Assembly: GCA_913054235.1 (NCBI GenBank)
Contig: CAJXJI010000001.1
Span: forward strand, 6,868-70,867
From: an uncultured bacterium
GTDB lineage: Bacteria > Patescibacteriota > Minisyncoccia > Minisyncoccales > UBA10102
Length of the DNA: 64,000 bases
Direction of reading: 5' to 3'
The position numbers were made by a program, and so were the translations under genes. How positions within the stretch are numbered: the first letter of the stretch is position 1; each line of letters opens with the position of its first letter. This document shows positions 2,206 to 52,155 of the stretch, piece by piece. The notes beneath the pieces were generated by a model. The model did not search any database. It was not told the DNA's origin and was given only the letters and a program-made list of their open reading frames with translations.

Positions 2206-3355
2206 TTTGTTCTTTAAAATATTCTATTAAGCAACTCTTAAACTTCTCAAGATTTTTATGCTCTACTCGAAATCCAGAAGCCTGAGGATGTCCTCCATAG
2301 GTTATAGTATACTCCTTGCAATGCTTCATTGCTTCAACAGTATCTTGCCCTGAAGGAGCACGCACTGACCCAATACACTCTTCTTTCATTTTTCTATACA
2401 TAAAAGTAGGTTTCTTTTCTTCCTGGGAAATAATAGACGCAAGGCCACCCAGTAAAATATAGTCAAAATCTTCTCCTCCCTCAAATACAATAGATTCATC
2501 CTTTTTTTCTAAAATATCATTTCTTACCTTTGCTAAAAGCCTATCTCTTTGTTGACGCCTTAGCTCATGCACCTCCAAAAGACGCTCTGTAATCAAAGTT
2601 ACTTCTCGCTCTGAATCAGAGCTTAAAATGCGAAACGAAGCTGGATATCCATCCTCAACATCACGAACATTCAATATGGAAATCATTTTTTGCAACTTTG
2701 ACTCAATATTAGGAAACTTCTTTAACTCTTGTATGCCAAAAAACGCACGTACACCAGGTCTCCATGAGTTTTCCAGAGTTTCCATCCCCTCCTCTATAAT
2801 CTCATTATTATCCTGCTCCCTTACCATCATATCAGCTATCGTTCCAATAGCAGCTAACTCCACTAAGCTCTTTCTCATGGCAGATGACATTTTATTCCCC
2901 AATATTTCCTCAGCTAAGCGAAATGTCAGCCCACAAGCAGCTAATTCTTTAAATGGGTACGTATCTCCGTCTTGCTTTGGATCAACAATAATATCGGCAT
3001 CGGGAAGTTTACCAAGTACCACATGATGATCAACTAATATAACATCAAACCCTAGTTTTTTTGCTTCTTTAATTTCCTTGAAGTTTGAAATACCCAAATC
3101 CATTGCACACAAAAGAGCCGGTGAAAATGTTTTCAATTCCTCTAAGGCTTTTTGCGTAATGCCATAGCCATCATTTTCGCGATCAGGAAAATATACACGA
3201 ACTATATTCCCTCCAAGACTTTTTAGCGTCTCTTGCATGATAATGGCAGAACAAACTCCATCTAAATCAGCATCCCCATAAAGAATAATACGCTCTCCTT
3301 TTTTAACTGCTTCTTTAAGGCGCGCCGCAGCCTTATCTAGGTTCTTAAGTGCCAT
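2198..3355 (-). CDS. DHH/DHHA1 phosphoesterase (NrnA-like nanoRNase / pAp phosphatase)
   Basis: DHH motifs DADLDGVCS and ILVDHH; C-terminal DHHA1 GGHPQASG. Confidence 0.8.
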   Translation of the reverse strand: MALKNLDKAAARLKEAVKKGERIILYGDADLDGVCSAIIMQETLKSLGGNIVRVYFPDRENDGYGITQKALEELKTFSPALLCAMDLGISNFKEIKEAKKLGFDVILVDHHVVLGKLPDADIIVDPKQDGDTYPFKELAACGLTFRLAEEILGNKMSSAMRKSLVELAAIGTIADMMVREQDNNEIIEEGMETLENSWRPGVRAFFGIQELKKFPNIESKLQKMISILNVRDVEDGYPASFRILSSDSEREVTLITERLLEVHELRRQQRDRLLAKVRNDILEKKDESIVFEGGEDFDYILLGGLASIISQEEKKPTFMYRKMKEECIGSVRAPSGQDTVEAMKHCKEYTITYGGHPQASGFRVEHKNLEKFKSCLIEYFKEQNG

Positions 3356-4409: not shown

Positions 4410-6149
4410 TTATGAGAAACGCAGAGTTTCTCCAGGTTTAAGTTCACCTTTTTGGATATTTTTTTCAGATTGCCTCTCTTGCAGGGCCGCTCCCAAAACT
4501 TCTTTTAATCCTTGCTTGTCTACCTCTTTTTTCTTTTGATTTTGTCCTTCTTGCTTCTTTTTTGAAGGATGAAACATTACAGGTTCCTTATCCATTGCTT
4601 CCTTTAAGGAGGATTGCTGTTGTTTCTGCGCTTGAGGTTCTTCTTTTACCTGAGGTTGTTCTTTTTTTGAACCTTGCTCTGCCTGTTCCTTTTGCTGCTG
4701 AAGCTTTTTTCTACATGCCTTACAGTAGACTTTACGCTTTCCGTCTGGGAGAAATACCACTTTAGTGTCCTTACCACAATTATCACACCTGGCGTCATAC
4801 AGTTCTTGCTGAGGAGCTTGCGGCTTTGATTCTGGTACTTTTTTTTGTGGTGCCCCACTATCAGCCTGTGTCCATGTTGTAATCTCCTCTTCCACCTCTC
4901 CACGCGCCGTTGCGTACCGCTCTCTACTCATACGGATAATCTCTGCTTCATTGGATTCTTCAGGAGAAGCAAAAGGCAACACCAAGGGAGGCAGGGTTTG
5001 AGCAGAAAAAGGACGTCCTGCAATACCATCAATCATAAGTTTTGCATAAATACTATACTTCCCTAAATTCACAAAGTCTAAAGCCAAAAACTCTGGGGTA
5101 AATTCCTTTTCTAAAAATTCTGCATCCTCGGCTCCTACACGAAAAGATATAATTGTGCCAACATTTCCAAATACAGCCCCACGAACCCTAGATTCATTCT
5201 CATCTAACTGTGATATGTATTGGTGGCTTAAAATCAAGCAAAGACGATACTTTCTTGCCTCAGATAAAATATTTACAAAAGAATCTGATGCAAAGTTTTG
5301 AAACTCATCAATATACAAAAAGAAATCCTGCCGTTCATTTTCCGGAATATCCACACGTGACATGGCAGCTAACTGAATTTTGGTTATAAGCATTGCACCT
5401 AAAAGACGGGAGTTGTCTTCACCAATACGCCCTTTTGAAAGATTGAGAATCAAGATTTTCTTTTGATCCATAAGCTCTCGCATATTAAAAGAGGATCTCG
5501 TCTGCCCCACAATGTTTCGAATCAAAGGATTGGAAACAAATTGACCCACCTTGTTTTGGATAGCAGCAGTCGCCTCAATCTCGTATCGCTGGGTGTATCT
5601 GGCATATTCTTGCACCCAAAATGCCTTTACCACTGGATCTGAAACCTTATCAATAACTTTTGCCCTGTAATCTGCGTCTACGAGCATTCGGTTAATTCCC
5701 AAAAGCGTAGCTCCCGGATACTCAAGTAGAGCAAGCACTGTATTGTTTAAAATATACTCCATTCTTGCTGACCATACATCGGGCCAAACTTTTTTAAACA
5801 CGGACATTAAACCAGAAGCCATTAAATGACGATGCTCTGGTTCCACATTCTCCATAACATTAAATGCAATGGGATAATCCATATCAGCAGGGTTAAAATA
5901 TACAACATCTTTAATCCGTTCAGTAGGAATATATTGCAATAATTCTTCTGCTGCCTCTCCGTGCGGGTCCACAAACCCTACGCCATTCCCTCCTTGAATA
6001 TCCTGCACCGCCATATTCTTTAACATCTCGGTCTTTCCCATACCAGTCTTTCCCACAACATAAAAATGACGTCTCCGGTCATCTTCTTTTATACCAAAGC
6101 GCCTTTGTGAATCTCGAAAATTAGTAATTCCAAAAAAATTAATATCCAT
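4410..6149 (-). CDS. TraG/VirD4/TraD-like P-loop ATPase (DUF87 / type IV coupling-protein-like) with C-terminal zinc ribbon and K/Q/E-rich tail
   Basis: Walker A VVGKTGMGKTEML; Walker B FLYIDEFQNF; Cys4 ribbon CDNCGK...CKACRKK; low-complexity QQKEQAEQGSKKEQPQVKEE tail. Confidence 0.6.
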   Translation of the reverse strand: MDINFFGITNFRDSQRRFGIKEDDRRRHFYVVGKTGMGKTEMLKNMAVQDIQGGNGVGFVDPHGEAAEELLQYIPTERIKDVVYFNPADMDYPIAFNVMENVEPEHRHLMASGLMSVFKKVWPDVWSARMEYILNNTVLALLEYPGATLLGINRMLVDADYRAKVIDKVSDPVVKAFWVQEYARYTQRYEIEATAAIQNKVGQFVSNPLIRNIVGQTRSSFNMRELMDQKKILILNLSKGRIGEDNSRLLGAMLITKIQLAAMSRVDIPENERQDFFLYIDEFQNFASDSFVNILSEARKYRLCLILSHQYISQLDENESRVRGAVFGNVGTIISFRVGAEDAEFLEKEFTPEFLALDFVNLGKYSIYAKLMIDGIAGRPFSAQTLPPLVLPFASPEESNEAEIIRMSRERYATARGEVEEEITTWTQADSGAPQKKVPESKPQAPQQELYDARCDNCGKDTKVVFLPDGKRKVYCKACRKKLQQQKEQAEQGSKKEQPQVKEEPQAQKQQQSSLKEAMDKEPVMFHPSKKKQEGQNQKKKEVDKQGLKEVLGAALQERQSEKNIQKGELKPGETLRFS

Positions 6150-22052: not shown

Positions 22053-25000
22053 TTAGTAACTGTAGGTAGGTCCTGTTGCGGCAGAACCGTAGCTATCGGT
22101 TTCTGTCTTATAGGTAGCAGCACCGGAAGTGTTTAGTGGGGTGTAATCCCAGCTAAATCCTTCAACCTGTGCTGTTGTAACCTGGTTTGGTCCTTTGGCT
22201 CCAGGAATTCTGATTCCAAAGCTTGCCGATACTGAAGTTACGAGACCTGAACTATCTTCTGCTCGCTTCACGTTTGACGTGTCAGCTTTCACTACCAATG
22301 TCATTGTTTGGCCTGCAGTTACTGTCTGCTCGGCCAAAGCCGTTACAGCAGAACGTGCATCAAATACAACAGTACCAGAACCTCTAGTAAGGTTGTAGAT
22401 GTCAGCCGGCTCAGTGCCAGCCACAGCAGCTGCGTTGGTGGAAATTCCAGATATTGCTACCTGGGTTACAGTAACTGTGTTTGCTCCAATAGAAGCAACT
22501 GTTGCTGTACCACTATCTGCAGCAGTACCCGCTATAACGTAGAGCTGATCACCAACCTGATACTTTGAAGCATCTGCAACGTCATAAGTCAAACCACTAT
22601 TTGCAGTGGCGCCATCAACGTCAGATACCGTGTACACAATGTAGGTGTCATCAGTTGCTATGGTGCCATCTACAACATCGGCTGCCATAACCATAACTGT
22701 AGAACTCGTAATACTGGCCACTGTGGTTGTTCCAGAGTTCGCTTCTGTACTTAAATCAATATAAAGGACAGAGTCACCAACTAGGAATCCAGCTGTACCA
22801 GCAACAGTAGCAGTAGCTGTACTACCTGAAGTAGCTGTAGTTCTGGTGTTTGTTGCAAGACCTGATACTTCAGCGATTATAGTATCGCCATTAAACAACT
22901 TAAAGTCTTTTACATTCCAGTCTGCGCTACTACCAAGCTTCTCTACTACCAAGCTTCTAAACGTCATGTCTCGGCTTCCAGAAGCTTTAATGCTAATGGT
23001 TCCAACAACCTGATCAAGGGCAGGTGATGCAACTCCTCCTGTTGGAAGAGAGTCACTTCCTGTGACAGTAAGCACTGGTTGCACCTCTTCATACCTCATG
23101 GTGTTACCCGTAAGGCTATTGGTGTTCGTGATCTTAGTAACATGGTCTCCAGCTGCTGCGATTGCAATTGAACCAGCAGGGCTAAAGGCAAGGCCTGAAA
23201 TTGCACTACCTGAAGCCACAGCCGTGGTCACGATTGCAAATCCTGCCTCGTTATCATCAGAGTCATATACATACACCAGATCACCTACGGCGTAAGCTAC
23301 CCCAGCGTTTGCATTTCCAAGAATGGCCTCTACCTTAGAAAGCTTGGTGATAATATCACCTGCTGCCCAAGAAGTGTCAGTTGCTTCTCCTTCAAGATCC
23401 AGGTCAGCTGATGCCAAGTTCACTGAATCATCATCCGTAGTTACCAATGCAAATCCTGGAGCTGTGGTTGTTCCAGCATCAGCTGTTACAGTCCAGTATA
23501 CAACGTCACCCACGTCTCCAGAGTAAGCATCCGTACCTGCGGTATACGCAGTTCCAGATGAAAGGGACTCTTGCGTGGTCAAACCAGAGCCTGATCCAAT
23601 TACATCAGCAGCGCTAAATCCGAGAACTCCAAGGTTTGATGCGGTCAACGTTCCAACTACCGTAGTATCCACAACTGCGGTTATTACTCGGGAACCATAT
23701 GAAGGAACAATGATCTCATTTCCTGAGCCAAAGGTAAACGTTGCAGTTCCTGCTGTGAGAGCTGTTGAAGGGTCGCTTGAAAGACCCGTGCCAAGCAACT
23801 TCACATTTGCAATGTTTCCTGCTCCATTCAATGTTCGCAGTACAAGCCTTTCTACCTTCATGTCTTCTACTGTTGCAGACAACTTAATTCTTGCCATTTC
23901 AATTCCGGTTAAACCAGGGGTCAAGAATCGGCTGGAAGCAGCTCCGGTAGAATCCATAGCAACTGTTACAGTTCCTGATTCAACAATAGTCAAAGTTCTT
24001 GCTGTCACAGTCGCTGAAGGACCCGTAATGGATGATCCAGATGTTGCACCAACTCCCGTAACATCAGCTGCATTCAGAGAAGCAATGTATGTGTCATTGG
24101 TACCTCCATCAGAAGCTGCGGTGTTTGCGCTTGCATACACATCAACCTGCACTGTCGTGGAAGCTAGAATATTCAGCTCTCCTGAGACAGTAAAGGTGTT
24201 GTTGGTAGCAGTAGGGGAGGCAATAGTGCTTCCCATCTGTGCTCCAGTGCTTGTCAGCTTTACCTTCATGTTGGTCAAACCAGTTGCAACCGCAACATCA
24301 CCTGCAGTAAGATCTACTACGATAGTAGAGATGTTTACTCCTTCAGAAGAGTTAGTTTGCATCAAGAAAGAACCAATAAGAAGCTCTGACTGACCCTCAA
24401 TCACAGTAGCAGCACCTATAGAAGCATTGTTCACAACCGTCAAGGTTGCGGTAGATGCTGTTAAGGTGTTAGTTGAGATATGAGCGTTTGCGTCAGACGC
24501 AGTTCCATAGGTGTTGGATGTCATTCTCTTATAGTACACTCGTCCTAGTCCACCAATGATGGTTTCTGCATCATCGATGCCGGTTCCAGCGTCAACCACA
24601 ACTTTTACCTTAAGTACGGTTCCAGCTGGAATAGTGTAGTACGTAGAAAATGTTACTTGGTCACCACTGTCATTTGCAGCGTTATCATCATCAAACAAAT
24701 CATCTGCTCCAGCTGACTGACTGTGAAGAGTTTGTCCTGCGTCAGTCATGAACTTAATTGTTCCAGAAAAGTCTCCATCGTCAGAGCTTCCACCAAGCTC
24801 ATAGTCAGCTCGCTGAATCTGAATATCTTCACCCTGAGCCTGAAGTTCCCAGACACCAACAACAATGTTGGCCTGTCCGATACCAAAGGTTCCTGAAGGT
24901 GAGCTACCTGACTTGTTCACGGTCAAAGTTCCCTGACTCACAGTCAAGAGGTTGTATCCTGAATTTCCAGTGGTGATGTCACCAATAGGAATTGCGGAGT

Positions 25001-26402
25001 CAACTGTTCCTGCGGCTGTTGGCAAAATACCAAGGCCAGTAGATACTCCGACTACCTGAAGATCGTAATCGTTTTGAATGATAACCTGTCCAGTTCTGTT
25101 AGAACCAGAGATTACATCAACTCGAACGGTTAAATCTTTTGTTGTTCCTTTCAAAATCGTGTAAGGCTCGGAGAGAATAAACTCAACCGACTTGCTGGTT
25201 GCTCCAGCAACCGTTGCCAACACAACTCCGTTAGGATCAACCAAATCAAAGTTTACGAGATCAGCATCAGCTGCAGTTCCATTCTGGAACAATGTCAATC
25301 TGTTAATCTTCGCGTCTTCGTTTCCAGTTGTCTCAACAAAGCGGAACTTGCTCAAAACATAATCAGTTCGTCCAATATCCACACTTACTGAGGTTGAGGT
25401 CTGTGAGACCACATCTATAGTTACTGCTCCCAAAATGCTTGAGGTGGCAGTAAGAGTCTGAAGGTTTCCATTTATAGGAAGACCTGTTGGGTCACCGTTT
25501 ATGCCAGTTACGTTAAATCCAATAGTTCCTGCAGTTGCTGCAGAGTTTACGTGCACTTGCACATTAAACGTGGTAGAGCCTCCTGCTGAGGCCACAATAG
25601 GATCTCCAGTAAATGGAATAGTTACTTTGCCATCAGCTAAAGTAACAACACTTCCGTGTCGATTACCGTTTGCGTCAACGATTAATACTCCGTCAACATT
25701 CGTGTCAATGGAAAGACCAAATCTCTCCACAGTAACAGATGTGACAGAAGCTCCACTTGCTCCTCCATTTACTTGCACCTGAACTACGGTGTTGTAAGCA
25801 GAAGATGCTCCCAATGTTCCAGCTGCTGGGTTGTTAAATCCAACTTGTACGCTGGAAGGACCGGTTGTTGGAGCTGGGGTTGGAGTACCAGGCGTTGGGC
25901 TTGGCGTTGGTGATGCTACAAACAATGCATTGATCTTTGCTCTTGAGGAAGAACCAAAGAATCCGGTTCCAGCACTCAATCCCAAAGGCTCCAATACATT
26001 TGCAGCATACTTGTCCTGAAATTTAATAACTCCGCTTCGGGTAATTGGCCCAAAGAAAGTTGTTTCATTTCCAGGAGAGCCAGCTCCAGAGTCTGCCAAT
26101 TTCGTGGCAGGGTCGGAGTTCAAGAACATCTGGAGGTACATTACGTCCTGTCCCTTAGATCCTACCGTAAGACTTGTGTCCCAGGTAAAACCAGCAGGAA
26201 TGCCAGAAACGCTTACCGTTCCAGTGTCTCCTCCGTCTATGTCTGTTAATTGCGCTTGCAATGTTGCCAATTGCGCCATAAGAGCGTCAATCTGTACCTG
26301 CAATTCAGCTGCGGTTAACGCAGAAGCTGGTGCAGGAACAGCTACGATCCCAAGCATAGCAACAACAGTTACAACGGCAAATATTTTCTTAAATCTACTC
26401 AT
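22053..26402 (-). CDS. Giant (1449 aa) secreted Thr/Ser/Gly/Ala/Val-rich surface protein: N-terminal coiled-coil plus PG-binding-like anchor, then tandem beta-rich domains (putative S-layer/adhesin)
   Basis: Signal peptide MSRFKKIFAVVTVVAMLGIVAVPAPASA. Coiled coil LQVQIDALMAQLATLQAQL. PG_binding_1-like domain GQDVMYLQMFLNSD...FFGPITRSGVIKFQDKYAANVLEP...GFFGSSSRAKIN. Recurring modules of the form ...R(F/L)..V.K..R..F..(L/V)...G......V.F.L.D.NG.V.A.V.G. The coding GC is much higher than the genome background. Confidence 0.75.
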   Translation of the reverse strand: MSRFKKIFAVVTVVAMLGIVAVPAPASALTAAELQVQIDALMAQLATLQAQLTDIDGGDTGTVSVSGIPAGFTWDTSLTVGSKGQDVMYLQMFLNSDPATKLADSGAGSPGNETTFFGPITRSGVIKFQDKYAANVLEPLGLSAGTGFFGSSSRAKINALFVASPTPSPTPGTPTPAPTTGPSSVQVGFNNPAAGTLGASSAYNTVVQVQVNGGASGASVTSVTVERFGLSIDTNVDGVLIVDANGNRHGSVVTLADGKVTIPFTGDPIVASAGGSTTFNVQVHVNSAATAGTIGFNVTGINGDPTGLPINGNLQTLTATSSILGAVTIDVVSQTSTSVSVDIGRTDYVLSKFRFVETTGNEDAKINRLTLFQNGTAADADLVNFDLVDPNGVVLATVAGATSKSVEFILSEPYTILKGTTKDLTVRVDVISGSNRTGQVIIQNDYDLQVVGVSTGLGILPTAAGTVDSAIPIGDITTGNSGYNLLTVSQGTLTVNKSGSSPSGTFGIGQANIVVGVWELQAQGEDIQIQRADYELGGSSDDGDFSGTIKFMTDAGQTLHSQSAGADDLFDDDNAANDSGDQVTFSTYYTIPAGTVLKVKVVVDAGTGIDDAETIIGGLGRVYYKRMTSNTYGTASDANAHISTNTLTASTATLTVVNNASIGAATVIEGQSELLIGSFLMQTNSSEGVNISTIVVDLTAGDVAVATGLTNMKVKLTSTGAQMGSTIASPTATNNTFTVSGELNILASTTVQVDVYASANTAASDGGTNDTYIASLNAADVTGVGATSGSSITGPSATVTARTLTIVESGTVTVAMDSTGAASSRFLTPGLTGIEMARIKLSATVEDMKVERLVLRTLNGAGNIANVKLLGTGLSSDPSTALTAGTATFTFGSGNEIIVPSYGSRVITAVVDTTVVGTLTASNLGVLGFSAADVIGSGSGLTTQESLSSGTAYTAGTDAYSGDVGDVVYWTVTADAGTTTAPGFALVTTDDDSVNLASADLDLEGEATDTSWAAGDIITKLSKVEAILGNANAGVAYAVGDLVYVYDSDDNEAGFAIVTTAVASGSAISGLAFSPAGSIAIAAAGDHVTKITNTNSLTGNTMRYEEVQPVLTVTGSDSLPTGGVASPALDQVVGTISIKASGSRDMTFRSLVVEKLGSSADWNVKDFKLFNGDTIIAEVSGLATNTRTTATSGSTATATVAGTAGFLVGDSVLYIDLSTEANSGTTTVASITSSTVMVMAADVVDGTIATDDTYIVYTVSDVDGATANSGLTYDVADASKYQVGDQLYVIAGTAADSGTATVASIGANTVTVTQVAISGISTNAAAVAGTEPADIYNLTRGSGTVVFDARSAVTALAEQTVTAGQTMTLVVKADTSNVKRAEDSSGLVTSVSASFGIRIPGAKGPNQVTTAQVEGFSWDYTPLNTSGAATYKTETDSYGSAATGPTYSY

Positions 26403-26510
26403 TTTTGTAATGTTTTTTTGTTTTAATTTTTATGCGACTTATCTTTGAGTTTCGACCTTTAAAAAATTATCAATCCCACAGATTGTTAAGTGGGTTCGTC
26501 CTCAAATAAA

Positions 26511-27254
26511 TTAATTGGAAATCATCCAAATATTCTCTAATGCTTTCTGGTAGTTTGCCGCCTGATATGCACCAATAGCTTCTTTGAGCAATACTTCCTG
26601 CTCACTGGTCAATGATCTTTTAAGCAAATCATTTAACTCAGATTCAACTAGAATCTTGGTTGCGCTTTTCAATCCTGATGTTTCTTCTTCTCCGATAGTA
26701 GCACCCAAAATCTGCTCTATTTGAGCTTTACCCTTTTGCAATTGTACTAGTTCTCGAGAAGCCTGTAAAGCCTTTTCAGGTTCGTTTTCCACAAGGGCTA
26801 AAAGACCTCGTGAAACCTCTGCTACGCTTAGGTTAAATTCCTCTGTTGCAGAAGCAAGATTCTTTACCTTGTTCCCCTCAACTACCCTTCTTAAGTCTGC
26901 CAAGCGTCTTTCAGCTACCTTAAAGGTAGCTGAAGAGTCACTTCCTGTGGTTGCCTTTTCAATAATAGAGCGAACCGAGTATAGGGGGTCTCCAGGAAGA
27001 CTGTTTTGTGAAACCTTATACCCAATCCCTCCAAATACCACAAATGCCAAGACTGCAAAGATATAGGCTGGTCTTTCAAGGTATCGGACATAGGATACAA
27101 GATGTCCTATCTTGTAAATAAGGCTAGGATTTTGTCCTATCTCCTTATTAGCCTCATTTGGAATACTGGTCTTAGCAAAAAGCACCCAACTGTTTCTAGG
27201 TTCAATTTCCTTTAAGCGAGATAATTTTGTTATGAGATCCTTTTCGTAGGCCAT
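26511..27254 (-). CDS. Single-pass membrane anti-sigma-factor-like protein (DUF5667-like LPGDPLY motif)
   Basis: Cytoplasmic N-terminus, one TM helix (AYIFAVLAFVVFGGIGYKV), then SLPGDPLYSVRSIIEK and a helical extracytoplasmic domain. Sits immediately downstream of the ECF sigma gene. Confidence 0.6.
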   Translation of the reverse strand: MAYEKDLITKLSRLKEIEPRNSWVLFAKTSIPNEANKEIGQNPSLIYKIGHLVSYVRYLERPAYIFAVLAFVVFGGIGYKVSQNSLPGDPLYSVRSIIEKATTGSDSSATFKVAERRLADLRRVVEGNKVKNLASATEEFNLSVAEVSRGLLALVENEPEKALQASRELVQLQKGKAQIEQILGATIGEEETSGLKSATKILVESELNDLLKRSLTSEQEVLLKEAIGAYQAANYQKALENIWMISN

Positions 27255-27311
27255 TATAGTTATGACGTAAAATAAGGGAAAGTATTACACTATCGGCTAT
27301 CCTAATTTGCT

Positions 27312-27815
27312 CTAAACATCCACCTTGCCCTTTAGGGCTTGAATGGCTCTATGAACCCCTACTCTCACGTTCTCCTCAGTCTTGCCGGTAATTTGAGCTA
27401 TTTCAGGCACAGTGAGCTCATCTACATATCGCCAGATAATAAGGTCCTGATAGTCTCCTTGGAGCTTTGCTATAGCCTCTTTTATCCTATCCATTTCCAA
27501 GCTTACTTCGCCCTGTTCTCTTGTTCTTTCCTGAATATCTTCAATTTCAATAGTGGTTTTCTCAATAGATACCACGGTAATCTTTTTGCTCCTATAATGG
27601 TCTGCTATGACATTCCTTGCTATTTGGTAGACAAAGGCCTGAGGATTCTCAATTACAGGATTGTTCTTTTGAATATGCCTGTATAAGCGCAAAAACACCT
27701 CAGACGACAAATCCTCTGCCGTCTCAACTAAACTAACCTTCAGGTATATAAACCGATAGATCTTGTTGACATATTGATCGTATACCTGATTAAAATATTG
27801 ATCTATTTCTTCCAT
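27312..27815 (-). CDS. ECF-type RNA polymerase sigma factor (sigma-70 regions 2 and 4)
   Basis: Region 2 FIYLKVSLVETAEDLSSEVFLRLYRH...QAFVYQIARNVIADHYR; region 4 HTH LTVPEIAQITGKTEENVRVGVHRAIQALK; 167 aa. Confidence 0.85.
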   Translation of the reverse strand: MEEIDQYFNQVYDQYVNKIYRFIYLKVSLVETAEDLSSEVFLRLYRHIQKNNPVIENPQAFVYQIARNVIADHYRSKKITVVSIEKTTIEIEDIQERTREQGEVSLEMDRIKEAIAKLQGDYQDLIIWRYVDELTVPEIAQITGKTEENVRVGVHRAIQALKGKVDV

Positions 27816-27901
27816 ATCTATATGAATGTCCTACCGCATATGATAGGACAAATAGCCTACAAAGTCAATGTCCTAGTTTTATGCACAGTTATTCCCCAGT
27901 T

Positions 27902-28528
27902 TTAACGAATCTGATAAAAAATCTCATTCCACTCTCCTTGTCTGATAATAAAGCTACGCTGGAGTAAGTCATCTAAATCTCTTCGCAAAGTTCTTTTCGT
28001 AACTTCAGGAAGTACCTTTTGTAATTCCCAAACCTGTACTTTTGGCTTGTTTCGCATAAGCTCTAAAATCCTAGATTGTCTAAAGGAAAGCTTCCCTTTA
28101 GATACTGACGTATTTTCCTTGCTCTTTATAACAGGAACTGTCTGTCTTGTGCTTATATCTTGCTTCAGAACAACTCGCTCTTGATTTACTACTATTGATT
28201 TTTCGTGAATCTTACGTAAAAACTCTCCCACCCTGTTATACTCCCGCTCCAGCATTATAAAGTTTTCTGGGTTTATTTCAGCTGTGCGTTTTGCATAGTT
28301 TAAATAAGCTACAAGTTTACCAGTCTCCCGAATTGCTCTTGCGGTCACCGTAGGCCTTTGCCCTGACATAGCGGGGTTTTCTTGCACAAGCAAAATAAGG
28401 CTTACCAAAAGCTTATTTGAAGAATCTTGCACCTGAGCTCTTAAAGGATCCTCTCGGGGCAAGATATTAACTACTTTATGAGTAGCTACTATGAGACGAA
28501 CAAAAAAGTCAGCATTCATTATACGCAT
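27902..28528 (-). CDS. Putative transcriptional regulator with C-terminal DeoR-like winged-helix HTH
   Basis: C-terminal RQSRILELMRNKPKVQVWELQKVLPEVTKRTLRRDLDDLLQRSFIIRQ matches the HTH_DeoR pattern; the N-terminal 120 aa are unassigned. Confidence 0.5.
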   Translation of the reverse strand: MRIMNADFFVRLIVATHKVVNILPREDPLRAQVQDSSNKLLVSLILLVQENPAMSGQRPTVTARAIRETGKLVAYLNYAKRTAEINPENFIMLEREYNRVGEFLRKIHEKSIVVNQERVVLKQDISTRQTVPVIKSKENTSVSKGKLSFRQSRILELMRNKPKVQVWELQKVLPEVTKRTLRRDLDDLLQRSFIIRQGEWNEIFYQIR

Positions 28529-28570
28529 TTTACTATACCAAAGACCTATCCCTCGGTCAAAGACCGTTCA

Positions 28571-28598
28571 TTGACAAAACATAAATATAATATATACT
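28571..28598 (+). promoter_or_regulatory. Sigma70-like promoter TTGACA-16-TATACT for the first islet gene
   Basis: Seen directly; followed by RBS GGGAGG and the ATG at 28690. Confidence 0.4.
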
Positions 28599-28689
28599 AT
28601 AACAAGGACATCGCTTGGATAAACCAAGCAAATTACCACGGTCTCTATGGGTAGTGTGGGGAAGAGGCTGATGTAGGGAGGCTCACATA

Positions 28690-28914
28690 ATGATAAGAAT
28701 GACAAAATTGATGCAGCGTGTAGCAAAGGAACAACAGCAACCATTGGAGCGGTTGCTACCAGAAATGATCAATGACATCGGGTTTTCAGCTACTGCAAAG
28801 GAACTGGACATCAATAAGGCAACCCTAGGGTACTGGCTCTTAAAGCTCGGCATACGTGTACAGCGAGTAGCTCTTGCTCCAGGGGAAACCCTGGAAATAA
28901 AGAGGCTATCTTAG
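28690..28914 (+). CDS. Small (74 aa) helix-turn-helix protein
   Basis: IGFSATAKELDINKATLGYWLLKLGI is HTH-like; it has its own promoter, RBS and downstream hairpin plus T-run. Confidence 0.5.
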   Translation: MIRMTKLMQRVAKEQQQPLERLLPEMINDIGFSATAKELDINKATLGYWLLKLGIRVQRVALAPGETLEIKRLS

Positions 28915-28945
28915 GTCTTTAATCTAGGGGTTTTTCCCCAAAATA

Positions 28946-28979
28946 GGCGCTAGTATCCCCTGCTGGCGCCCTTTTTATT
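28946..28979 (+). terminator. Hairpin plus CTTTTTATT terminator after the HTH gene
   Basis: GGCGC...GCGCC stem with a 15-nt loop, then CTTTTTATT. Confidence 0.35.
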
Positions 28980-29046
28980 ACCAACAAAACCTTATTTACC
29001 TTGACATACCATATATCTTGGAGTATACCCTTAAGGATACTATACT

Positions 29047-29265
29047 GTGGAGAAGATAGTGGTAAAACAGAGAGATAAGCGGAGTAAAAATCCCAAAAAG
29101 AAGAGCCCATTTCGCAAAAACAGAAAAGTACGTATTAATGGAGGCCGCTTTGATGGTGCTATAGCAACAATCATGTTTGCTGGTAATAGCGAAGCTACAG
29201 TCAGAATACCAGGACGCGAAAAACCTGAGTCATTTTCCCTCGATCAACTACGCTTGGCCTCCTAA
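29047..29265 (+). CDS. Small (72 aa) basic protein with KOW-like motif
   Basis: N-terminus KQRDKRSKNPKKKSPFRKNRK is highly basic; KVRINGGRFDGAIATIMFAGNSEATVRIPG resembles a KOW/L24-like beta barrel; followed by a strong terminator. Confidence 0.45.
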   Translation: MEKIVVKQRDKRSKNPKKKSPFRKNRKVRINGGRFDGAIATIMFAGNSEATVRIPGREKPESFSLDQLRLAS

Positions 29266-29294
29266 GGAGAAGCAAATCTCCAGAAAAAGCAAAA

Positions 29295-29328
29295 GCCCTT
29301 GGCATATTGCCAAGAGCTTTTTTATTTT
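29295..29328 (+). terminator. Rho-independent terminator
   Basis: GCCCUUGGCA-uau-UGCCAAGAGC (one mismatch), followed by TTTTTTATTTT. Confidence 0.6.
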
Positions 29329-29426
29329 CTATCCTTGGTTCGGCCAAGTTATTAACACCTGCCTGCGCAGGCAGGCCTTAGCAAGATTAAGTTTCCTTTC
29401 CATTCAAAACCAATATTACAACACCA

Positions 29427-29454
29427 TTGACAAATCCAAAATAAGGTGTATAAT
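29427..29454 (+). promoter_or_regulatory. Near-consensus sigma70 promoter TTGACA-16-TATAAT
   Basis: ttgacaaatccaaaataaggtgTATAAT seen directly; drives the downstream 49-aa ORF or sRNA unit. Confidence 0.5.
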
Positions 29455-29495
29455 ATCACTTAAGTACCAAGAGAGGGGTATCTTATGGAGGCACA

Positions 29496-29645
29496 ATGAG
29501 CCACAATATACGCGCAACATGTATCTTTCATTATGGGGATTCAAGCCCCACCACAAAAGAACTAGCAGTACTTGCATCCAATGGATGGGATATACTTCTA
29601 GACGGCGATGCACAGACGTGCACACTCGTCAAAAATGATTTCTAG
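29496..29645 (+). CDS. 49-aa peptide MSHNIRATCIFHYGDSSPTTKELAVLASNGWDILLDGDAQTCTLVKNDF (alternatively a ~280-nt sRNA)
   Basis: Consensus promoter upstream, RBS GAGAGGGG, a 4-codon uORF (MEAQ) whose stop overlaps the main ATG (AATGA), and a strong terminator downstream. No homology recognised. Confidence 0.35.
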   Translation: MSHNIRATCIFHYGDSSPTTKELAVLASNGWDILLDGDAQTCTLVKNDF

Positions 29646-29707
29646 CTAGCAAAATCCAGCAAGCAATATTCTTTGTTTTAAAAATCTTCTCTCTTGGGCA
29701 AACAAAA

Positions 29708-29742
29708 GCCCCCCGGCACAAAACACCGGGGGCTCTTTTTTA
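29708..29742 (+). terminator. Strong rho-independent terminator
   Basis: GCCCCCCGG-cacaaaaca-CCGGGGGCU followed by CTTTTTTAT. Confidence 0.7.
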
Positions 29743-29828
29743 TCTAATGCTCCCTTAACTAAGTTGAGCATTTTTAGTCTAGCCAAGTTATCTATACAGA
29801 TTACTATGCGTATCAATATCAATAAAAA

Positions 29829-30548
29829 TCAAAGTCCAAGAAAAGTCCTCAGCACCGAAGAAGGAATAACAAAGATGTTTCTTTGAAGGTCAGCATCTGC
29901 TAAACCCGCAACTCTTCCTTCCACGTCAAACAAAGGAGCACCATCAACATTTTCATTCTCCACGATTGAAGTGGATAAAGAATCTTCTTCTACTTTCTTT
30001 ACAATCCCCATATTCACAATTAGAGTTCCTTCACCCTCCTCAATAATTTTTGCTAGTAATACCACTCGCTCTCCAAGCTTAACTCCCCCATTACCAACAA
30101 AACCAGCTGTTTTAAGTCCCATATCTTCTATTTTTAAAAGCACAAGATTATTTTTTACATCACGTTTTAAAACTTGGGCCTCCAATGGATCTTGTCCTTC
30201 AGGATATATCATAATCTTAAAGCCAGTTGGAACCAGGGAAGATAAAGTAACAATTAATCCGTCTGAAGTATATACAAGGCCAGAACCTGCTCGCGTGCCA
30301 GAACTCTTTAGCGCAACCACAGTATTTTTTACTTCTTGAATTGTCCTCTCTATTGCCTCATTCTCACGAACAAAAATCTGCTCTACGGGAGCTATTATTT
30401 GAGTTCTTGCATTCCAATCTTTTAAAAATTGCCAATCTGCAAAAGCAGGGTTTGCTGCCAAAGAAGGTAGCAAAAAAGCTTGGGACCAGAGGCCCCCAGC
30501 AGCTCCTGCTAAAAACAGAAGTAAAAACAAAAGAATTCGTCTTGTCAT
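29829..30548 (-). CDS. Catalytically inactive trypsin-fold HtrA/DegP-like pseudoprotease with signal/TM anchor
   Basis: Collinear with the neighbouring HtrA. GSGLVYTSDGLIVTLSSLV aligns with GSGFIVSPDGLIITNKHVV (His to Ser). NNLVLLKIED aligns with QDLAVLKIDQ (Asp to Asn). NVDGAPLFD aligns with GNSGGPLLN (the nucleophile Ser falls on Asp). No PDZ domain. Confidence 0.6.
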   Translation of the reverse strand: MTRRILLFLLLFLAGAAGGLWSQAFLLPSLAANPAFADWQFLKDWNARTQIIAPVEQIFVRENEAIERTIQEVKNTVVALKSSGTRAGSGLVYTSDGLIVTLSSLVPTGFKIMIYPEGQDPLEAQVLKRDVKNNLVLLKIEDMGLKTAGFVGNGGVKLGERVVLLAKIIEEGEGTLIVNMGIVKKVEEDSLSTSIVENENVDGAPLFDVEGRVAGLADADLQRNIFVIPSSVLRTFLGL

Positions 30549-51615: not shown

Positions 51616-51699
51616 GCCTGGGTGGCGGAACTGGCAGACGCACAGGACTCAAAATCCTGCGAGGGCAACCTCATGAGAGTTCAAGTCTCTCCCCAGGCA
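51616..51699 (+). tRNA. tRNA-Leu (anticodon CAA), class II with long variable arm
   Basis: Acceptor GCCTGGG/CCCAGGC; D-arm GCGGAACTGGCAGACGC; anticodon stem-loop CAGGA-CUCAAAA-UCCUG; long variable arm; T-arm GAGAG-TTCAAGT-CTCTC; discriminator A. Confidence 0.85.
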
Positions 51700-52155
51700 C
51701 TATTTAAAGAATCTTTTAGATAGTTTCACTACAAGAAATGCAGAAGCAATCCCTATAGCAGCTCCTGCAAAAATATCTGAAGGCCAGTGAAGAAAAGCAA
51801 GGACTCGCGCGCCAGAAAGAATTGTAGCTCCCAGCAAGAATAGAATTCCTGCCTTTTTGTTATAAAAATACAAAATTGCTCCTAATGCAAAAAAGAACGT
51901 TGCGTGTCCCGAAGGAAAAGAAGAAGAAGCTGTATGTTCAATTAAAGGCGCCATATTGTTTTCAATGAATGGACGGGGCCTGTCCCAAAAAAGTCGCACT
52001 GCCTCTGTAATAATCCCTCGAGAAAGAATAGCAGCCACAATTACTTGCCATAAAAACTTTGGGTGCTTTTTTTTGTTTTGCCACCAAAACACCAAAAATC
52101 CTGCAATGAGGATATAGGCAAGGTATTCTCCTAAAAAAATAATGATACTATTCAT
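51700..52155 (-). CDS. PAP2-family phosphatase (undecaprenyl-diphosphatase-like)
   Basis: PAP2 motifs KxxxxxxRP (FWDRPRP), PSGH (SFPSGHAT) and SRxxxxxHxxxD-like (HWPSDIFAG); multi-TM. Confidence 0.8.
   Translation of the reverse strand: MNSIIIFLGEYLAYILIAGFLVFWWQNKKKHPKFLWQVIVAAILSRGIITEAVRLFWDRPRPFIENNMAPLIEHTASSSFPSGHATFFFALGAILYFYNKKAGILFLLGATILSGARVLAFLHWPSDIFAGAAIGIASAFLVVKLSKRFFK

Follow-up and report, generated by a model that had tools for sequence, protein, structure and literature searches.

Bacterial messenger RNAs (mRNAs) whose extreme 5′ end is base-paired are protected from 5′-end-dependent decay, and the 5′ untranslated region (UTR) of ompA in E. coli and the leaders of ermC and aprE in B. 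subtilis form 5′-terminal stem-loops that stabilise their mRNAs. The icaR mRNA of Staphylococcus aureus carries a UCCCCUG motif in its 3′ UTR that pairs with the Shine-Dalgarno region, blocks initiation and yields an RNase III substrate (PMC3868564). In the hok mRNA, the tac/fbi fold-back keeps the toxin mRNA inert, indirectly sequesters the mok ribosome-binding site (RBS) and keeps the Sok antisense RNA from binding (PMC9841398). The unit described here lies at 29427-29741 on the plus strand of a 64,000-nt stretch of contig CAJXJI010000001.1 (GCA_913054235.1; Patescibacteriota, UBA10102). This whole stretch is called the window, and all coordinates refer to it. The unit was first pointed out in a model's reading of the DNA letters alone (the sequence-only reading). 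It is probably a self-contained single-gene unit that encodes a genuine soluble cytoplasmic protein of 49 amino acids (aa), and its mRNA would be clamped at its two ends.

Like other unannotated bacterial proteins of 50 aa or fewer, the product comes from a short open reading frame (ORF) that has its own RBS, promoter and terminator and has been missed by annotation. As with such proteins, it shows purifying selection in a relative, is predicted to form a compact soluble domain and probably binds a larger partner. It differs from known small proteins in belonging to a family with no sequence-family or fold match, which so far appears to be confined to this Patescibacteria species and one sister species. 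The sister-species locus (L016) encodes the 52-aa relative P0001 and is the main comparison sequence for the unit; all evolutionary inference, that is, covariation and the ratio of nonsynonymous to synonymous substitution rates (dN/dS), comes from the single species pair of window and L016. The features of the unit are as follows.

29358-29375, no strand assigned: perfect palindrome of 18 bp, CCTGCCTGCGCAGGCAGG, some 50 bp ahead of the -35 hexamer
29427-29454, plus strand: sigma-70-type promoter, with TTGACA at 29427-29432, a 16-nt spacer and TATAAT at 29449-29454 (12/12 match)
29464-29478, plus strand: 5′ arm of the predicted closing helix, GU-ACCAAGAGAGGGG, beginning about 4 nt from the predicted mRNA 5′ end
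29485-29499, plus strand: upstream ORF (uORF) MEAQ-stop, ATG GAG GCA CAA TGA, four codons, judged incidental
29487-29491, plus strand: Shine-Dalgarno sequence GGAGG, 4 nt before the ATG, seen directly in the sequence
29496-29645, plus strand: small protein gene, 49 aa, MSHNIRATCIFHYGDSSPTTKELAVLASNGWDILLDGDAQTCTLVKNDF, supported by a homologue, dN/dS and fold models
29646-29685, plus strand: 3′-UTR spacer, not conserved (unalignable with L016 and of different length)
29686-29699, plus strand: 3′ arm of the predicted closing helix, the CU-rich tract CUUCUCUCUUGGGC, directly before the terminator; L016 counterpart CCUCUCUCUUUGAUC
29704-29741, no strand assigned: intrinsic terminator with A-tract and T-tract, a GC-rich hairpin that is probably bidirectional

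The probable 49-aa gene and its relative

A full HMMER (phmmer) scan of 1.84 billion representative proteins with the 49-aa product returned one genuine relative, P0001 (E 1.3e-9), whose gene is found on seven contigs of the sister organism that are identical to each other. BLASTP aligns the two proteins without gaps at 25/46 identical (54%) and 34/46 similar positions, and the comparison of the whole ORFs (49 versus 52 aa) includes one 1-codon indel. Conservation in a relative, which the sequence-only reading had left in question, is thus found: the unit is kept in the sister species. The other six phmmer matches (P0002-P0007), with weaker E-values and several matched stretches each, were rejected as spurious; the two of the six that were read (P0003 and P0005) are translated tandem repeats. 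A profile search built from the two sequences recovered P0001 only, a word-indexed protein search with the 49-aa query gave no candidates, and viral contigs and a phage collection held no relative of the protein.

The codon alignment of the window and L016 ORFs gives dN 0.34, dS 1.45 and dN/dS 0.235; on this species pair, selection on the 49-aa ORF is purifying. Nucleotide identity between the ORFs is 64%, and both species have frame 0 open and stops in each of the five other frames. When the 52 observed substitutions were placed at random on the window ORF, the observed amino acid identity was retained in 0.09% of trials, and identity together with an open frame in 0.05%. By codon usage, frame 0 scores highest among the six frames and above 98.7% of off-frame gene chunks. 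The GGAGG site, which the sequence-only reading did not mention, gives the main ORF a strong RBS of its own; it is kept in L016 together with ATG-AGC and there stands 6 nt before the ATG rather than 4 nt.

That reading had instead drawn attention to the uORF. It is present in the window, where its stop and the main ATG at 29496 overlap in ATGA; it is not conserved, as its start is ACG rather than ATG in L016, where the spacing between RBS and ATG also differs by 2 nt. The uORF looks incidental because its start codon is not conserved, and it probably came about as a by-product of the RBS context ATGGAGG.

The remaining elements that had been read from the letters are all present where they had been placed, including the 49-aa ORF with the sequence quoted for it. 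Both of the Cys residues that had been singled out occur in the window protein, and the homologue keeps only C42. The peptide is polar and has no hydrophobic or transmembrane segment, in agreement with the earlier description; its predicted tryptic peptides include ATCIFHYGDSSPTTK and ELAVLASNGWDILLDGDAQTCTLVK. AlphaFold2 models, run independently and in single-sequence mode for the window protein and P0001, both show a beta-alpha-beta-beta arrangement, with a mean predicted local distance difference test score (pLDDT) of 74.6 and 71.4, respectively. Pfam, PHROG, NCBIfam and PADLOC gave nothing significant for the 49-aa product, a sequence-profile search of the PDB gave no match, and Foldseek against the PDB and BFVD found none at E ≤ 0.001. 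A likeness to DUF4177 was not upheld: the Pfam hidden Markov models for a DUF4177/DUF1737-like domain do not match even at E ≤ 10, the window model reaches only E 0.1-0.5 with Foldseek in BFVD, and the P0001 model fails to recover the likeness. For the proposal of a small regulatory protein, the protein part is supported by the same-length homologue, purifying selection, the retained RBS and ATG and the consistent folds; the regulatory part is taken up with the neighbouring genes below.

The signals around the ORF are also strong. The exact pattern TTGACA-N16-18-TATAAT occurs once in the 64-kb window with both strands counted, where dinucleotide shuffles of the window (n = 100) give an expectation of 0.06 and contain the pattern in 6/100 cases, which bears out its description as the most canonical promoter in the window. 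In L016, the homologous ORF is also preceded by a 12/12 promoter with a 16-nt spacer. This consensus sigma-70 promoter is predicted to drive the unit, with a transcription start near 29461 as judged from the position of the promoter. From this predicted start to the end of the T-run the transcript would be about 281 nt, in line with the roughly 280 nt said to be bracketed by promoter and terminator. The upstream palindrome CCTGCCTGCGCAGGCAGG is likewise unique in the window (0.03 expected) and has no counterpart ahead of the homologous L016 promoter; it may serve as an operator or form a hairpin, and its membership of the 49-aa unit is uncertain.

At the other end, the terminator hairpin has a 5′ arm at 29708-29716 (GCCCCCCGG) and a 3′ arm at 29726-29733 (CCGGGGGC), with one bulged C and a 9-nt loop. 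Its 7-8 G-C pairs are followed by TC and then, at 29736-29741, by the T6 that the sequence-only reading had noted. A terminator scan with a loop limit of 8 nt reports the hairpin on the minus strand only, because the plus-strand loop of 9 nt exceeds that limit. On the minus-strand side the hairpin has the tail CTTTTGTTT. Since on the plus strand AAAA precedes it and T6 follows it, the hairpin can terminate in both directions. It lies about 95 nt past the stop of a convergent trypsin-like protease gene (29829-30548, minus strand), which it probably also terminates.

Predicted pairing between the ends of the transcript

Folding of the predicted transcript, taken as 29461-29742, gives a minimum free energy of -81 kcal/mol (z = -4.1). 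The fold includes a closing helix of 12-14 bp, which is not in the earlier reading and which joins 29464-29478 to 29686-29699. Its core of 8-9 pairs has a probability of 0.97-1.0 in both the window and L016, each folded alone, and its end pairs a probability of 0.5-0.86; over the whole helix the values span 0.5-1.0 in the window and 0.7-1.0 in L016. The RNAalifold consensus contains 14 helix pairs, with 1 compensatory change, 5 one-sided consistent changes and 2 breaks. Both arms are nearly identical between the species, despite the limited identity of the ORF and the unalignable spacer. Two strain variants, 29476 G>A and 29465 T>C, replace a G·U pair by a Watson-Crick pair in each case. Several internal hairpins are also kept between window and L016, some with changes on both sides of a pair.

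The helix is not a general small-gene design of this organism, since the neighbouring 74-aa and 72-aa units show no 5′-3′ closure in either species. Occlusion of the RBS by the 3′ CU tract was considered and rejected: the helix at 29464-29478 misses the RBS at 29487-29491, and in silico deletion of the 3′ arm leaves the unpaired probability of both RBS and AUG essentially unchanged. A duplex of the RBS alone with the 3′ UTR reaches -4.4 to -7.4 kcal/mol. Because the helix leaves the RBS free and abuts the terminator hairpin, we infer that the clamp mainly protects the short mRNA from end-dependent RNases, stabilising rather than repressing it.

The proposed sequence of events begins with the consensus sigma-70 promoter, which would give a transcript of about 281 nt. 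Its GGAGG site would direct translation from the ATG at 29496, and transcription would end at the hairpin that the convergent protease gene shares. Roughly the first 20 nt of the mRNA would pair with the CU tract just before the terminator, looping out the whole coding region and leaving almost no free 5′ end. Such a clamp would guard the short mRNA from end-dependent RNases and so allow high, stable expression. Translation would not be blocked, the RBS being as accessible in silico with the clamp as without it.

This arrangement can be set beside the systems introduced above. In contrast to icaR, the pairing lies 9 nt upstream of GGAGG, at the extreme 5′ end, so that the RBS stays accessible; the 3′ UTR is short (about 96 nt), the helix abuts the terminator, and the role inferred for it is a stabilising one. 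Cleavage by RNase III, as in icaR, would meet a helix of only about 14 bp, which is short for this enzyme. As in ompA, ermC and aprE, pairing that begins only a few nucleotides from the 5′ end would impede 5′-end-dependent decay by RppH and RNase E or by RNase J. Those leaders form a local hairpin, whereas here the partner strand of the 5′ arm lies about 220 nt away, in the 3′ UTR.

The likeness to hok is that a long-range helix closes the full-length mRNA end to end around a small ORF with an overlapping upstream frame. A type I toxin-antitoxin-like module in the hok/sok style could be read into the superficial resemblance that the small ORF, with its overlapping uORF (ATGA) and its conserved end pairing, bears to mok and tac/fbi (PMC9841398). 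The mRNA of a toxic peptide would then be kept inactive by 5′-3′ fold-back, with the leader ORF in the part of mok. We consider this extremely improbable. The hok product is a membrane toxin, whereas the window protein is polar and not hydrophobic, with a predicted soluble alpha/beta domain and no transmembrane segment. A consensus scan found no minus-strand promoter-like site of at least 9/12 within 29461-29760 that could serve an antisense RNA, the uORF is not conserved, the helix leaves the RBS unsequestered in silico, and PADLOC gave no match. For lack of a hydrophobic segment, an antisense promoter and a PADLOC match, the toxin-like peptide proposed in the sequence-only reading is therefore not supported.

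A second proposal of that reading was a noncoding RNA whose ORF is incidental. In its fuller form, the transcript would be a structured regulatory small RNA (sRNA) of about 280 nt or a dual-function RNA, with helix and terminator as a scaffold, the CU tract or another loop pairing with target mRNAs, and the ORF incidental or secondary. This is unlikely. It would fit the strong promoter and terminator around only about 281 nt, the z-score of -4.1, the closing stem beside the terminator (a typical sRNA architecture), the internal hairpins kept between species, some with two-sided pair changes, and an ORF of atypical codon usage that gene finders never call. However, dN/dS is 0.235 at a dS of about 1.45, the ORF is open in the same frame and at the same length in both species with the other frames closed, and its RBS and ATG are conserved. 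So much amino acid identity rarely survives random substitution, both proteins are predicted to fold, and the 3′-UTR stretch that separates the ORF from the CU arm lacks conservation. Even with E ≤ 10 allowed, Rfam offers no matching family: over 29200-29900 there were only sub-threshold chance matches, mostly over terminator hairpins, and at the gathering threshold a search of the whole window placed nothing in the flagged region. ARAGORN found no transfer-messenger RNA in the window and no transfer RNA (tRNA) at the flagged region. A noncoding RNA is thus unlikely to be the sole function, though the transcript is strongly structured and may have an RNA-level role besides coding.

A more far-reaching version, quite unlikely in our judgement, would make the unit an element restricted to the Patescibacteria (candidate phyla radiation, CPR) that acts both as mRNA and as riboregulator, its CU tract being freed on processing and targeting Shine-Dalgarno-like sequences of other mRNAs; alternatively, the clamp would be a new cis mechanism for very long mRNA life in slow-growing, ultra-small bacteria. 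If the dual function were true, the transcript would be the mRNA of the founding member of a new mini-protein family acting with the neighbouring island of genes for an extracytoplasmic function (ECF) sigma factor, a helix-turn-helix (HTH) protein and a KOW protein, and in addition a stable riboregulator.

Several observations weigh against the reading of the unit as a protein gene with a clamped mRNA. Only two diverged sequences are available, so that covariation and dN/dS alike describe one species pair; within the species, contigs are 98.8-100% identical, too little variation for either measure, and the comparison of strains therefore says little. The 49-aa ORF was never called by gene callers on the examined contigs of this species, probably because its codon usage is only intermediate: its score is lower than that of 99.7% of true-frame chunks from the long genes of the window. 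The minus strand folds equally well by z-score, and the z-score is for this reason not strand-specific. For the duplex between the two UTRs (-22.3 kcal/mol in one species and -20.5 kcal/mol in the other), 14 and 36, respectively, of 1000 dinucleotide shuffles gave an energy at least as low, a result that is only moderately significant because purine-rich and pyrimidine-rich tracts pair readily. The innermost pair of the helix is lost in the strain variant 29478 G>T, and the L016 helix contains one C-U mismatch. The protein has no family or fold assignment, and its function is guessed from gene context.

A rearranged island of small genes

The unit is found next to a small regulatory gene island, in which a DUF5667 protein is also encoded. 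The neighbours of P0001 (a sigma-70 gene, a DeoR-HTH gene and the 74-aa and 72-aa genes) are the same set as those in the window:

27312-27815, minus strand: sigma factor (ECF-type), also beside P0001 as a sigma-70-family gene
27902-28528: DeoR/WYL-like HTH protein; a DeoR-HTH gene is also beside P0001
28690-28914, plus strand: 74-aa HTH-like protein, also beside P0001
29047-29265, plus strand: 72-aa KOW-like protein, also beside P0001

The order of the small genes differs, being 74-72-49 in the window and 52-74-72 in L016. The window terminator has its homologue behind the 72-aa gene of L016 and not behind the L016 52-aa gene. It follows that promoter, ORF and CU tract moved as a block while the terminators stayed, and that the CU arm travelled with the ORF to a different terminator, which argues that the CU tract belongs to the gene and not to the terminator.

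These comparisons bear on whether the ORF is a chance frame in an intergenic spacer, with an orphan or spurious promoter and a terminator that serves the protease gene alone. The terminator is indeed homologous to one that ends another gene in L016 and also serves the protease strand, and the relatives with a 75-77% identical protease (L001-L003) are without the region entirely. Yet promoter, ORF and CU tract are kept as a block in L016 despite relocation, a coding signature is present, and the 12/12 promoter is retained in both species, so that a chance ORF is highly improbable.

In L001-L003, synteny is lost directly after the protease and the small-gene region is absent; since the break falls right after the protease gene, these relatives are uninformative for the unit. 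One of them, L002, with a 75% identical protease, has an IS200-like Y1 transposase (PF01797, E 2.5e-7) at 4752-5423 on the minus strand, in the position of the small-gene island of the window.

Three single-gene units, each with a near-consensus promoter and a terminator, can be recognised when window 28571-29741 is compared with L016 1855-2907. Breakpoints appear at the shared -35 sequence TTGACA(AAA) by the divergent DeoR-HTH promoter and at the ‘AAAAGCCC’ terminator starts. Blocks seem to have changed places with the terminators left where they were. In L016, the stretch 2920-3312, of about 400 bp and downstream of the 72-aa gene, has no called gene and no Rfam match. It harbours several GC-rich hairpins, among them one with a stem of 10 bp at 3084-3107, and it could be an uncharacterised RNA or simply the contig end.

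Same-species contigs with identical flanking proteins occur in many ENA, JGI and Logan samples, and the interval of about 560 bp from the 72-aa gene to the protease (29266-29829) is 98.8-100% identical across these strains. One protein in the 90% cluster of ClpB bears the label ‘Patescibacteria group bacterium’, in support of the CPR origin assumed in the sequence-only reading. When window 26151-30293 is compared with L004, divergence is strongly mosaic: parts of 26500-26700 and 28100-28200 reach 22-27 differences per 100 bp, and 27400-27900 and 28800-30300 have 0-2 per 100 bp. This pattern suggests recombination between strains.

The 74-aa protein has 1264 database matches at E ≤ 0.001 and no Pfam or NCBIfam family match. 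Outside the species, its top matches reach a full-length identity of 73-78%; a few of them come with a named organism, which belongs to the Chloroflexota or SAR202. Such conservation suggests strong constraint or horizontal transfer and is remarkable for a Patescibacteria gene. At the large-genome loci L028-L034, of Chloroflexota type, the 74-aa homologue lies between stretches of about 200-700 bp without a called gene, and tblastn with the 49/52-aa family found no match in these loci.

The 72-aa protein has an alternative GTG start at 29059, which gives 68 aa in some gene calls. It weakly resembles the KOW/C-terminal region of NusG/UpxY (NCBIfam E 3e-4, below cut-off; PHROG E 0.059), and JGI cluster members are labelled ‘transcription antitermination factor NusG’; it may be a stand-alone KOW mini-protein.

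Downstream of the sigma-factor and DUF5667 genes, and on the same strand, is an ORF of 1449 aa (22053-26402, minus strand), for which precomputed tables gave no Pfam match. The sole Rfam or ARAGORN matches in the window are a bacterial class A RNase P RNA at 96-459 on the minus strand (129 bits, E 2.6e-39) and a tRNA-Leu(CAA) at 51616-51700 on the plus strand.

Possible role and wider meaning

The most likely role of the 49-aa product, put forward with low confidence, is that of a small protein that binds a larger partner in the sigma/HTH/KOW island, or serves it as an adaptor, and thereby modulates it. This role is read from the neighbouring genes only, which are the same in both species.

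The Patescibacteria (CPR) have tiny genomes, and for a large part of the genes in them no function is known. Unannotated small proteins widen this functional blind spot, and the present case would be a conserved and probably highly expressed protein of 49 aa. The unit is an unannotated, lineage-restricted small protein gene, and the conserved clamp between its 5′ and 3′ UTRs is noteworthy. The clamp is an added candidate for the very short list of bacterial mRNAs with conserved 5′-3′ UTR pairing (icaR and hok), and its geometry points to a protection of the ends and not to translational repression. Should it be confirmed, it would represent a compact natural design for stabilising short mRNAs, and the 49-aa protein would offer a handle on a small regulatory gene island beside an ECF sigma factor.

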